From: Candidatus Pacearchaeota archaeon
GTDB taxonomy: Archaea; Nanobdellota; Nanobdellia; Pacearchaeales; GW2011-AR1
Assembly: GCA_026395775.1 (NCBI GenBank)
Contig: JAPLYA010000141.1
Coordinates: 1-31,436, forward strand
DNA length: 31,436 nucleotides
Direction: 5' to 3'
A model generated the notes under the pieces. The model made no database searches, was not told the DNA's origin, and was given only the letters and a program-made list of their open reading frames with translations. Made by a program: the position numbers and the translations under genes. Positions within the stretch are counted from its first letter, which is position 1. Each line of letters begins with the position of its first letter. Below are positions 29,465-31,420 of this stretch, piece after piece.

Positions 29465-30220
29465 ATGGAAATTCGAGATATAGAAAAAGTTGAAAGGCAG
29501 GGAGGAATTGCTTCTACTATAAAAGTCGAAGATTTTATCCTAGGGTATGCCGAAGCAGTTCGCAGATTTTTAAGGGACAATCAACCAGCTATGGGGAATA
29601 GCTGGGTTAAGGGGGTTGGGGATAGGTTATATAATCTTCAAGGAAAAAATAAGGAAGGGGATGTTCTTGGCTCAAGCACAGATATTGGAGTTGCAATTGC
29701 TACATTTTGTCCAGAAATTCCTTTGATTACTGGGCAGCAATTGCTCGGGATATATAATCAGGCAGGAAACAAAAATCCTTTTGGGAATGTTTATATTGAC
29801 TTTGGTGCTCAGGTTAATGGAACTCCTGAAGTAAACCATGTTCAGGCAAAAGTTCTTTTAGAGGAGTTTAAAGCAAGAGGAATCGAGGTTGGAGAAGGCA
29901 GAGTTCCAAATTTTGCTCAATTAAGATTACATGTCGATAAAGATGCAGGATTAGTTTACAGATTAGCAGAAAATGCATCAGCAGATAATATTGCCGTTGT
30001 TTCTGCATATCTTTTTAAAAACAGAGTTGGAAAAAATGGATTGTTTGGGGCTTTTCTTGGTAGGCCTGATTGGTTTGCTTATGATGGTGACCTCCAGTAT
30101 TCCTGTGACGCTGGTCGGGTGGTTCGTTATGACGCCGAAGGCGTCGCACGCGCTGAACCAACAAAATCTACGCCTGATTTATTCAGTACTCTAGCAGAAG
30201 ATTTTATTAGAAAATTTTAG
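29465..30220 (+). CDS. DGR target (variable) protein, 251 aa, no signal peptide; CLec-like fold inferred
   Basis: Contains VR in frame (LFGAFLGRPDWFAYDGDLQYSCDAGRVV); cttataaa TATA upstream. Fold is inferred from known DGR targets. Confidence 0.9.
   Translation: MEIRDIEKVERQGGIASTIKVEDFILGYAEAVRRFLRDNQPAMGNSWVKGVGDRLYNLQGKNKEGDVLGSSTDIGVAIATFCPEIPLITGQQLLGIYNQAGNKNPFGNVYIDFGAQVNGTPEVNHVQAKVLLEEFKARGIEVGEGRVPNFAQLRLHVDKDAGLVYRLAENASADNIAVVSAYLFKNRVGKNGLFGAFLGRPDWFAYDGDLQYSCDAGRVVRYDAEGVARAEPTKSTPDLFSTLAEDFIRKF
30041..30131 (+). repeat. DGR variable region (VR)
   Basis: 30041-30122 aligns ungapped to 30376-30457 with 12 mismatches, all at TR adenines; a further aa>cg plus 1-nt indel precedes a shared ttatg. 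Confidence 0.95.
30131..30145 (+). promoter_or_regulatory. DGR homing hairpin GACGCC-GAA-GGCGTC
   Basis: Perfect 6-bp GC-rich stem with 3-nt GAA loop directly 3' of VR, inside the coding sequence. Confidence 0.85.
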
Positions 30221-30375
30221 AAGGGTTTTTAAGCAGGTATTTCTTAACAAAATTCCTAACCATTTGGTTAGGCCACACGCCAGTTTATCAAAGCATATTC
30301 AATTTATTTTAAGCTATAAAATTCAGATATTCCTTACGAGGAATTTCGGTGATAGGAAGATAATCTGGCTACAAG

Positions 30376-30467
30376 TTGTTTAGGGCTTATCTTGATAGGC
30401 CTGATTGGTATGCTAATGATGATAACCTCCAGTATTCCAATGACGATGGTCGAATGGCTTAATTATG
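30376..30467 (+). ncRNA. DGR template repeat (TR)
   Basis: Non-coding in the target frame (ends atg gct TAA); 20 adenines in the 82-nt core, 19 in codon positions 1-2. Confidence 0.93.
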
Positions 30468-30484
30468 GTTGGGGTTATTTTCAA

Positions 30485-31420
30485 ATGAATAGTTTATATG
30501 AACAAATTTATAATTTATCTAATTTAATTCTTGCTTGGAGAAAAGCAAGAAAAGGTAAAACCAGAAAAGATTATGTTAAAGAGTTTGAAAAAGACACCCC
30601 AGGCAACTTGCTAAAACTACAAGGTGAACTGAAAAATCAAACTTACTTTCCAAAACCCTTAGTAACTTTTATTTTTCGCGACCCAAAAACCAGAAAAATT
30701 TCAAAAGCAGATTTTAGAGATAGGATTGTTCACCATGCTATTATCAAAATAATTGAACCACTTTTTGATAAATCTTTTATTTATGATTCTTGCGCAAATA
30801 GAATTGGCAAAGGAAATTTATTTGCAATAAAAAGGTTTCAAGAATTTTTAAGAAAAGTTACTCATTCTGGGAGCAGGATAGCTTTTTGCTTGAAAGCCGA
30901 TATAAGACATTATTTTCAAGAAGTGAATCATAGTATTCTAATTGAATTAATAAAAAGAAAAATAAAAGATGAAAAAGTAATCTGGCTTATAAAACAAATA
31001 TTAGAAAATGGGGAAAATATGACTGGTAGAGGCATGCCTTTGGGCAACCTTACAAGCCAATTTTTTGCTAATGTTTATCTTAATGAACTTGATTATTTTA
31101 TCAAGCAAGGGTTGAAAGCTAAATATTACATCAGGTATGTTGATGATTTTGTAATTTTGCACAATTCAAGAGAACAATTAGAAGAGTGGAAAGAGAAAAT
31201 TGATATCTTTTTAAGGGAAAAACTGAGATTAGAATTGCATCCTGAAAAATCCAAAGTTATTCCTTTATCTAAGGGGGTAGATTTTGTTGGTTTTAGGTGT
31301 TTTTATTATTTTAGATTATTAAGGAAAAGAAATATAATAAAAATTTTAACTAAAATCAAAGAGTATAAAGAAGGCAAAACTGTTTCTCTTGAAGAGATAA
31401 AGAGAAAACTTGCAATTTAA
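30485..31420 (+). CDS. DGR reverse transcriptase (311 aa from ATG 30485)
   Basis: KTRKI, FRDRIVHHA, CLKADIRHYF, GMPLGNLTSQFFANVYL, YIRYVDDF, GVDFVGF. The 30392 TTG extension is TR read in another frame. Confidence 0.95.
   Translation: MNSLYEQIYNLSNLILAWRKARKGKTRKDYVKEFEKDTPGNLLKLQGELKNQTYFPKPLVTFIFRDPKTRKISKADFRDRIVHHAIIKIIEPLFDKSFIYDSCANRIGKGNLFAIKRFQEFLRKVTHSGSRIAFCLKADIRHYFQEVNHSILIELIKRKIKDEKVIWLIKQILENGENMTGRGMPLGNLTSQFFANVYLNELDYFIKQGLKAKYYIRYVDDFVILHNSREQLEEWKEKIDIFLREKLRLELHPEKSKVIPLSKGVDFVGFRCFYYFRLLRKRNIIKILTKIKEYKEGKTVSLEEIKRKLAI

Follow-up and report, generated by a model that had tools for sequence, protein, structure and literature searches.

The cassette at the end of the analysed DNA from Candidatus Pacearchaeota archaeon (a stretch of 31,436 nt, here called the window) is almost certainly a complete, chromosomal diversity-generating retroelement (DGR) of the Nanoarchaeota/DPANN class, for which a mechanism is proposed below. 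It is a DGR of a known kind, ordinary for DPANN archaea; the class has been on record since 2015–2017, and the type was described by Paul et al. in 2015 (PMC4372165). The identification as a DGR in the initial annotation is supported: all the hallmarks that can be tested in a sequence are present, namely the reverse transcriptase (RT), the TR/VR pair, the IMH/IMH* difference, the hairpin and a predicted C-type-lectin fold. The DPANN label is likewise correct, since the relatives of the cassette are found in Pacearchaeota and Woesearchaeota MAGs.

Organization of the cassette and the adenine footprint

All features described here lie on the forward strand. The target gene (29465–30220) encodes a variable protein of 251 aa and carries the VR in its 3′ part (30041–30122, residues 193–220). 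The TR (30376–30457) begins 155 nt after the target stop, and another 27 nt separate it from the ATG of a complete RT gene (30485–31420, 311 aa), which ends 16 nt before the end of the contig. The genes flanking the cassette show no conservation between relatives, and the context therefore offers no functional clue. The RT matches RVT_1 (E 4e-22), has the Bordetella phage DGR RT as its best solved relative (8ub7, E 3.3e-42, residues 3–303), and contains the motif PLGNLTSQ, of the DGR type (I/L/V)GxxxSQ, together with YVDD. In the alignment, the equivalent of R74 of bRT is also kept.

The VR and the TR align without gaps over 82 nt, with 12 mismatches according to both the repeat finder and a separate count. 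All 12 fall at TR adenines (7 A>G, 4 A>T and 1 A>C), and the chance of 12 mismatches being confined to the 20 adenines among 82 positions is 1.5e-9. The adenine-mutagenesis footprint first noticed by a model was thereby reproduced in its coordinates, length, number of changes and 7/4/1 split. The TR adenines sit in AAY, GAY and TAT codons, 13 at codon position 2, six at position 1 and one at position 3; full enumeration revealed that no TR-adenine substitution can reach a stop codon, which bears out the codon logic noted earlier, with 19 of the 20 adenines in positions 1–2.

At its 3′ end the VR carries the IMH, GGTCGGGTGG (~30113–30122), which corresponds to the IMH* GGTCGAATGG in the TR (~30448–30457). 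The two differences at 30118–30119 (TR AA vs VR GG) recur unchanged in nearly every related cassette, and this GG/AA difference between IMH and IMH* is fixed in more than 30 of them. They are not attributed to random mutagenesis, because they match the fixed difference between IMH (TGGGGT) and IMH* (TGGAAT) known from Nanoarchaeota DGRs (PMC4372165). The mutable core (~30047–30111 in the VR) therefore comprises 18 adenines, of which 10 are changed. The initial diversity count of 16 variable codons, 1.1e12 DNA variants and 9.6e10 protein variants was reproduced as arithmetic, but it slightly overestimates the repertoire, the IMH positions having been included. After correction, 15 codons are variable, and they allow 6.9e10 variants in DNA and 3.2e10 in protein.

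A GC-rich hairpin or cruciform (30131–30145) was found by folding 8 nt past the VR. This element, GACGCC-GAA-GGCGTC, has a 6-bp GC stem and a GAA loop, lies inside the target ORF and codes for the conserved residues D-A-E-G-V. It persists across loci through compensatory changes in the stem, such as GCGCC/GGCGC, GTGCC/GGCAC, CTGGC/GCCAG, GTGGC/GCCAC, GCTGC/GCAGC and AACGCC/GGCGTT. Hairpins with a GRA tri-loop within the target gene are known for Nanoarchaeota DGRs (PMC4372165), and the GC hairpin described here is presumed to be the target-recognition element for retrohoming.

The same footprint recurs among relatives. An own TR/VR pair is present in 8 of 10 orthologous loci, in each of the paralogous cassettes on contigs C37 and C141, and in 24 of 29 further loci with the RT-16 RNA discussed below, with ~100% of the mismatches at adenines in all three groups. 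Searched against the genome, the TR matched itself and the neighbouring VR and nothing else; therefore, there are no remote VRs in this 80%-complete assembly.

Target protein and its probable location

The structure-prediction check suggested in the initial annotation yielded a stand-alone C-type-lectin fold for the target, with a pLDDT of 90. In this predicted fold the VR forms distal strands and loops and the IMH codes for the last core strand, as in DGR variable proteins of the Mtd/TvpA/AvpA type. The sequence is divergent: the 251-aa target has no match in Pfam, a Foldseek search of the PDB with the model gave nothing significant, and a profile of the target family found only chance matches among PDB sequences, AvpA not being among them. 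In the AFDB clusters there were two uncharacterised look-alikes, which provide no functional lead. The target family has one copy in the genome.

The target has no signal peptide, as had been stated from the sequence. A hydrophobic segment is absent, the maximum Kyte-Doolittle 19-residue mean being 1.18, whereas the secreted protein targeted by the other DGR of this genome reaches 2.9, and none of the 24 RT-16-linked targets examined possesses such a segment. On these sequence features, it is a reasonable inference that the target acts intracellularly. The usual view, however, is that DPANN DGRs tune surface proteins for interaction with the host (PMC8632793), and most cellular DGR targets bear a signal peptide or a transmembrane segment (PMC8144416). 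The variable protein might accordingly operate outside the cell or at its surface, in the attachment of an episymbiont to its host, after leaving by an unconventional route or by docking its C-terminal helix to a partner. A flexible linker follows the VR (residues 230–238, pLDDT 44) and leads to a conserved amphipathic C-terminal helix, in which L239, L243, F247 and F251 are invariant or nearly so, and the two together could serve as a tether. An external location is nevertheless rather unlikely. The lack of a hydrophobic segment is shared by the target and all 24 of the linked targets, the N-terminus belongs to the predicted fold, with a first strand at residues 14–18, and no neighbouring conserved gene fit to be an exporter or anchor was found among relatives. 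Furthermore, a membrane segment is evident at the N-terminus of the protein targeted by the Avd-type DGR of the same genome, and the contrast between leaderless and exported targets therefore looks real. An intracellular protein, which would offer its variable face to a presumed ligand in the cytoplasm, is the more probable reading, even though a missing signal peptide is no proof of a cytoplasmic location.

Evidence on current activity

In other members of the family, alleles that are nearly identical differ for the most part within the VR: at an identity of 90% or more within a cluster, variation affects 49 of the 196 columns in VR blocks, compared with 75 of 1822 outside them. For the cassette itself, the VR consensus is identical in Logan contigs of two freshwater-sediment samples, both from one study, and contigs of this kind mask rare variants. 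A second Logan contig, of 85% identity, was rejected as a VR variant and assigned to a separate lineage, because its differences begin well upstream of the VR. The shared consensus would fit a recently silenced or fossil DGR, whose footprint records past homing and whose VR has stopped diversifying in this population. VRs are also static in several allele clusters of the family (1, 2 and 9), and decay has reached some relatives, in which the RT is lost (L007), the cassette is truncated (L011), the target is orphaned (L005 and L006) or most TR adenines have disappeared (L010). Silencing is, however, a doubtful explanation for this locus, where the RT ORF is full length, retains its catalytic motifs and shows no repeat-induced frameshift, the TR retains all 20 adenines in their AAY, GAY and TAT codons, and the IMH, the hairpin, the promoter and the RNA helices are all conserved; minor variants, moreover, would stay hidden in the two contigs.

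Template RNA: promoter, RT-16 domain and closing helix

A structured RNA lies between the target gene and the TR of this apparently intact DGR. It was identified by its covariance model as RT-16 (Rfam RF03019, 30255–30377), in a full-length match over model positions 1–158 that scores 73.4 bits (E 4e-11; gathering score 50). The RNA runs at its 3′ end into the first bases of the TR. In all eight target-family loci with a TR, RT-16 ends 0–4 nt ahead of it, and the same adjacency holds in 24 of the 29 further RT-16 loci, with three of the five exceptions being cut by contig ends. RT-16 forms the 5′ part of the DGR template RNA, a structured domain.

Upstream of this domain there is an archaeal TATA box, TTTTTAAG (30226–30233), located 22–29 nt from the 5′ edge of the template RNA. 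A TTTTTAAR-like box occurs at an equal distance in essentially all cassettes (n = 33 compared), and transcription of the template RNA is predicted from the position of the box to start at ~30252–30257.

The 5′ end of this RNA (30254–30263) can pair with the segment AUGGUUGGGG (30465–30474), situated 7 nt past the TR, in a closing helix of 10 bp, two of them G-U, which encloses both RT-16 and the TR. A U-rich tract follows the 3′ strand, and the ATG of the RT lies 10 nt beyond that strand. The minimum-free-energy fold of 30250–30484 contains this helix, and covariation is seen in its counterpart in at least 24 of 33 cassettes. The helix scores 9.9 when formed with its own partner, against 7.45 for mismatched ones; none of 5000 permutations came up to the observed mean, a figure that overstates independence because the loci compared are related. 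The 5′ strand has an alternative partner in the local P1 strand (30266–30272). Of the two pairings, the closing helix is the stronger in 23 of 25 loci; it competes with the Rfam P1 hairpin, and either conformer may be functional. A small local hairpin after the TR, recognised by eye, was discarded in favour of the long-range helix, whose 3′ strand accounts better for this segment.

Independence from Avd

Avd is found in ~70% of DGRs. It is not universal among them (PMC8632793), and in the present cassette there is no ORF between target and RT, nor room for one. The sole bAvd of the genome (88 bits) is on contig C42, in a separate canonical DGR; therefore, help in trans is possible for this organism. 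Among 151 related genomes, bAvd was found in 6 and RT-16 in 47, and in 43 of these 47 RT-16-positive genomes PF22296 was undetected at E ≤ 1e-3. The RT-16-positive genomes without Avd include one that is 100% complete and one in a single contig, and several are 95–100% complete.

The RT of BPP-1 is inactive without Avd, according to two reports (PMC7826257; PMC8632793), and RT-16-type cassettes might likewise depend on a helper of the Avd kind, which would act in trans, as the Avd of C42 could do here, or be too divergent for Pfam models, Avd being a small helical bundle that is easily overlooked. Such a dependence is improbable in view of the 43 genomes without a PF22296 match, the 95–100% complete ones included, the ease with which the clade's own Avds are found (68–108 bits) and the lack of any small conserved ORF accompanying the cassettes. 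RT and RNA would probably act without Avd.

Far less probable still, to the point of being dismissed, is that RT and RT-16 are the remnant of a retron or group II intron next to an incidental repeat: Weinberg et al. 2017 guessed (PMC5737381) that many RT-associated motifs derive from retrons, and the closing helix does resemble the retron a1/a2 helix, but the group II, retron and Drt models all fall far under their cut-offs for this RT (group II 157 bits vs 300; retron 46 bits vs 235), and among solved structures the BPP-1 DGR RT leads all other matches by 20 orders of magnitude. More than 30 cassettes, moreover, bear the adenine-only footprint independently of one another, and Rfam yields no group II intron RNA in this cassette, which likewise has no intron RNA domains and no maturase or endonuclease parts.

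Proposed mechanism and implications

In the mechanism proposed, the dedicated promoter (TATA box at 30226) would yield a discrete RNA of ~220 nt, in which a short 3′ segment follows the RT-16 domain and the 82-nt TR. The 5′ end of this RNA would then pair with the segment after the TR, and the resulting helix, by enclosing RT-16 and TR, would set the IMH* at the 3′ end of the TR beside the structured domain, in the manner of a retron a1/a2 helix. The adjacent RT would copy the TR into cDNA with misincorporation opposite adenines, and the cDNA would replace the VR, its homing being guided by the IMH (GG against AA in the TR) and the downstream GAA-loop GC hairpin. The outcome would be up to ~3e10 variants, differing at 15 residues of the binding face of a small, soluble protein with a C-type-lectin fold and no export signal.

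From these elements a broader proposal is put forward tentatively, at somewhat less than even confidence: RT-16 and the retron-like closing helix would replace both Avd and the 3′ Sp RNA, giving a self-priming DGR of two components, RT and RNA. This would characterize a widespread DPANN class whose targets form a set of small cytoplasmic lectin-fold binders, an intracellular repertoire of variable receptors in genomes of less than 1 Mb.

The cassette has several implications. A role can be assigned to the orphan Rfam family RT-16, that of a 5′ domain in DGR template RNAs. With its conserved promoter, its closing helix and no Avd, the cassette would define a minimal RT-plus-RNA system, which could be simpler to reconstitute, or to use as a tool for targeted mutagenesis, than the three-part system of Bordetella. 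In addition, the small, soluble and leaderless targets, a feature of all those examined in the class, are at odds with the common assumption that DPANN DGRs act on surface proteins, and raise the question of what purpose a cytoplasmic hypervariable binder would serve.

Comparison with known systems

The retron ncRNA (msr-msd, a1/a2) provides an architectural parallel to the template RNA, since there too a helix between the 5′ end and the post-template segment encloses a structured domain and the template, and brings the 3′ end of the template beside the structured part. The likeness is architectural only: the RT of the cassette belongs to the DGR clade and its product would serve homing, whereas branched msDNA and a 2′-OH priming guanosine belong to the retron side of the comparison. 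RT-16 itself entered the literature as an orphan motif "near RT genes", with only RT-10 linked to a DGR (PMC5737381); here, RT-16 is contiguous with the TR in more than 30 cassettes.

With the DGR of BPP-1 (mtd-avd-TR-brt; RNP structure 8ub7) the cassette shares a homologous RT, the adenine footprint, the IMH/IMH* pair, a hairpin 3′ of the VR, a target with the CLec fold and a template that needs RNA flanks on either side. However, BPP-1 requires Avd, which the cassette does not have. The large structured RNA of BPP-1 (Sp, Rfam RT-10) lies 3′ of the TR, whereas that of the cassette lies 5′ of it, and only ~27 nt remain between the TR and the start of the RT. The targets also differ, being a phage tail fibre tip in BPP-1 and a cellular leaderless protein here.

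The target has a counterpart in AvpA (PMC4372165, PMC5006420), likewise a single-domain CLec-fold protein of ~250 aa with an internal VR of ~27 aa followed by a C-terminal tail. The target family differs in that its sequence could not be matched to AvpA or any other chain of solved structure, and in having no Pfam model. The RT-16 domain, the promoter and the closing helix are unmentioned in the papers on Nanoarchaeota DGRs that were consulted (PMC4372165, PMC5006420). Small ORFs lying between RT and target were put forward by Paul et al. 2015 as candidates for Avd; the cassette contains none of these. In its general plan, the cassette agrees with the DUSEL4 Nanoarchaeota DGRs (PMC4372165), with which it shares the order target(VR)-TR-RT, the GG in the IMH against AA in the IMH* and the GRA tri-loop GC hairpin inside the target gene, and its theoretical repertoire falls within the 1e10–1e12 of Nanoarchaeota/DPANN DGRs.

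Adenine footprint and reverse transcriptase

The cassette consists of a target gene (29465–30220), the structured RNA RT-16 and a reverse transcriptase (RT) gene (30485–31420), all on the forward strand. A repeat finder returned a single 82-nt direct repeat with 85% identity, comprising the variable repeat (VR, 30041–30122) within the target and the template repeat (TR, 30376–30457). By our own count the copies differ at 12 positions, and 12/12 mismatches fall on adenines of the downstream copy (7 A to G, 4 A to T and 1 A to C), with 62/62 non-adenine positions identical; the probability that 12/12 mismatches fall on the 20 adenines by chance is 1.5e-9. 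These adenines occupy codon position 2 in 13 cases, position 1 in 6 and position 3 in 1, and enumeration of all substitutions reached no stop codon through any TR adenine. The initial annotation had given the same repeat coordinates and length, 12 of 20 changed adenines, 62 conserved positions, 19 adenines in codon positions 1–2 and no possible stop, all of which was reproduced. Its estimate of 16 variable residues, about 1e12 DNA and about 1e11 protein variants is arithmetically sound when all 20 adenines are counted (16 variable codons, 1.1e12 DNA and 9.6e10 protein variants), but it includes a fixed pair. The final two differences (AA in TR, GG in VR; 30118–30119) are the same in almost all cassettes set against the window (8 orthologs, 2 paralogs from this genome and another 24), and they correspond to the IMH (TGGGGT) and IMH* (TGGAAT) pair described for diversity-generating retroelements (DGRs) of Nanoarchaeota (Paul et al., 2015, PMC4372165). 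GG/AA is thus the IMH/IMH* homing boundary, outside the diversified set; the G-R-V encoded at IMH is invariant in the target-family alignment. The mutable core thus comprises 18 adenines, 10 of them changed, with 15 variable codons and 6.9e10 DNA and 3.2e10 protein variants.

A GC hairpin (30131–30145, + strand), with a 6-bp GC stem and a GAA loop, lies 8 nt past the VR within the target ORF, where it encodes D-A-E-G-V. It is retained in related cassettes with changes on both sides of the stem, which argues for selection on its structure. Nanoarchaeota DGRs have matching GRA tri-loop hairpins (Paul et al., 2015, PMC4372165), and the element also matches the target-recognition hairpin of Bordetella phage BPP-1 (PMC3240598).

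The RT gene starts at the ATG at 30485 and encodes 311 aa; it is complete, stopping 16 nt short of the end of the contig, which is covered whole and belongs to a 0.94-Mb genome, 80% complete. A longer ORF from 30392 was rejected, being open merely because the TR is free of stops. The product matches RVT_1 (Pfam), carries PLGNLTSQ, YVDD and the equivalent of R74 of the BPP-1 RT, and has the Bordetella phage DGR RT as its closest solved structure (8ub7, E 3.3e-42, residues 3–303). Group II, retron and Drt types were dismissed, as the scores lie far under the cut-offs of those models. With the footprint, a DGR-type RT, IMH/IMH* and the hairpin all found, the first reading of the element as a DGR stands, and it belongs to a class of DGR already described in 2015–2017.

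Target protein, variation and decay

The 251-aa target gave no Pfam or NCBIfam match. Its 58 homologs are of ~250 aa, and the named ones come from Nanoarchaeota, Pacearchaeota or Woesearchaeota MAGs, in agreement with the DPANN setting initially proposed. Their alignment shows a conserved scaffold, with variation limited to a GLF-x-A-x-L-xxxx-W-x-A-xxxx-L-xx-S-xxx block, followed by an invariant GRVVRYDAEGV. The target resembles AvpA (PMC5006420) in its size, single domain, short internal VR and C-terminal tail. It has no hydrophobic segment, with a maximum 19-residue hydropathy of 1.18 against 2.9 in the secreted target of the other DGR of the genome (contig C42), and its first predicted strand begins at residue 14, leaving no room for a signal peptide, which bears out the absence claimed at the outset. 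Residues 228–251 (30146–30217), after the VR and the hairpin, comprise a linker predicted with low confidence and a conserved amphipathic helix at the C-terminus, in which L239, L243, F247 and F251 show little or no variation; this helix might serve for docking or membrane association. Tails of other RT-16-linked targets fall into two classes, short (3–19 aa) and long (42–61 aa).

Within allele clusters of at least 90% identity, 49 of 196 columns vary in the VR block versus 75 of 1822 outside it, and the alleles of some clusters have differences almost confined to the VR. Judged from this excess, the target family is diversified in nature. The locus itself was found in two freshwater-sediment runs of one study, both with the VR consensus of the window, in assembled contigs where minor variants are invisible; a third contig (85% identity), considered as a VR variant, belongs to another lineage.

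Several relatives depart from the complete arrangement. In the ortholog at L010:4569-5012, TR equals VR through the whole centre and holds only 14 adenines, as if VR sequence had overwritten the template, which would leave the system frozen. Two loci (L005, L006) have orphan targets with neither TR nor RT within 4 kb, L007 retains target, RT-16 and TR with the RT missing, and in L011 both target and RT are truncated. Among RT genes of the RT-16 class, 7/26 are split into two ORFs (L025, L031, L036, L037, L039, L046, L051), all at a poly-G tract (G6–G11) or an (AG)n repeat (8–12 units), at a constant site just upstream of GMPLGNLTSQ in genomes that are otherwise rich in AT; shorter tracts occur there in four RTs that stay in frame (L003, L035, L038, L042). 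This pattern resembles on/off switching of the RT by strand slippage, or possibly assembly error at the repeats; the RT of the window has neither tract at that site.

RT-16 and the template RNA

RT-16 (Rfam RF03019; 30255–30377, + strand) scores 73 bits against a gathering score of 50, and its 3′ end lies on the first TR bases. Its original description left it an orphan motif found near RT genes, RT-10 alone being linked to a DGR (PMC5737381), and a full-text literature search for "RT-16 RNA" gave only an unrelated match. RT-16 ends at the TR 5′ edge in 8/8 orthologous loci possessing a TR, and is absent from 3/3 loci without one and from the Avd-type cassette. It is present in 47/151 related genomes, with a maximum of 4 copies per genome; in 26/29 sampled loci it is followed by a DGR RT, and the TR begins 0–4 nt past it in 24/29 (three of the five exceptions being cut by contig ends), with the VR 300–450 nt upstream and mismatches at adenines only. 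In all, the link to RT-16, the lack of Avd and the split RTs were checked over about 40 cassettes.

A TATA box of TTTTTAAR type (30226–30233, + strand) is kept in essentially all cassettes, 22–29 nt upstream of the RT-16 5′ edge, and a U-rich tract follows the 3′ element of the template RNA. In two loci of the same genus (L028, L052) RT-16 and TR are followed by an RT gene on the opposite strand, so there the template RNA must be transcribed separately. Together with the TR adjacency, these features suggest that RT-16 and TR form a self-contained RNA gene.

Accessory protein and other DGRs of the genome

The cassette has no space for an accessory gene, with 155 nt from target stop to TR and 27 nt from TR to RT start. 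The single bAvd of the genome (88 bits) belongs to another DGR, of canonical layout, on contig C42 (L013:429-3148), composed of a target, a 118-aa bAvd, a TR and a 334-aa RT, 45% identical to that of the window, with no RT-16. Its 342-aa target combines a membrane segment at the N-terminus with a CLec domain of FGE-sulfatase type, and 12/15 TR/VR mismatches fall at adenines. Among the 151 relatives bAvd was detected in 6 versus 47 for RT-16, and it was undetected in 43 RT-16-positive genomes, including some 95–100% complete. Given these genomes and the lack of room in the cassette, the RT-16 class most likely works without Avd; use of a divergent Avd-like helper is conceivable.

The genome holds three RT-16-type cassettes (that of the window, C53, and those on C37 and C141) beside the Avd-type one, each with its own small leaderless target lacking a Pfam match. 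The targets on C37 (L022:5142-7215; ~249 aa) and C141/C76 (L016, L023; ~209 aa) are unrelated to that of the window, and the RTs are 72–77% identical to its RT. Contig C76 probably continues C141, joining within the RT gene where both end; the C141 TR has a 26-nt AT-rich insert missing from its VR. In relatives, 24 RT-16-linked targets measure 207–306 aa, bar one truncated ORF, and a hydrophobic segment was found in 0/24, in contrast with most cellular DGR targets, reported to have a signal peptide or membrane segment (PMC8144416).

A predicted long-range helix closing the template RNA

The first bases of the RNA (30254–30263) are complementary to 30465–30474, both on the + strand, giving a predicted 10-bp helix with two G-U pairs, whose 3′ strand sits 5–15 nt past the TR. 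Equivalent pairing occurs in at least 24/33 cassettes with many different sequences, such as CCUAACC/GGUUAGG, GUCUUAGGG/CCCUAAGAC, UGCCCAGA/UCUGGGCA and UCCAAGAG/CUCUUGGA, and versions of 17 and 14 bp also occur. The helix score is 9.9 with own partners versus 7.45 with mismatched ones, and 0/5000 permutations reached the observed mean, a result indicative only because the loci are related. The 5′ strand is also used by the local P1 hairpin of the Rfam model; the distal helix is the stronger in 23/25 loci and is present in the minimum-free-energy fold of 30250–30484. It encloses RT-16 and TR and brings the TR 3′ end, where cDNA synthesis must start, beside the structured domain. In this geometry it resembles the a1/a2 helix of retrons, and internal priming is a feature of both BPP-1 and retrons.
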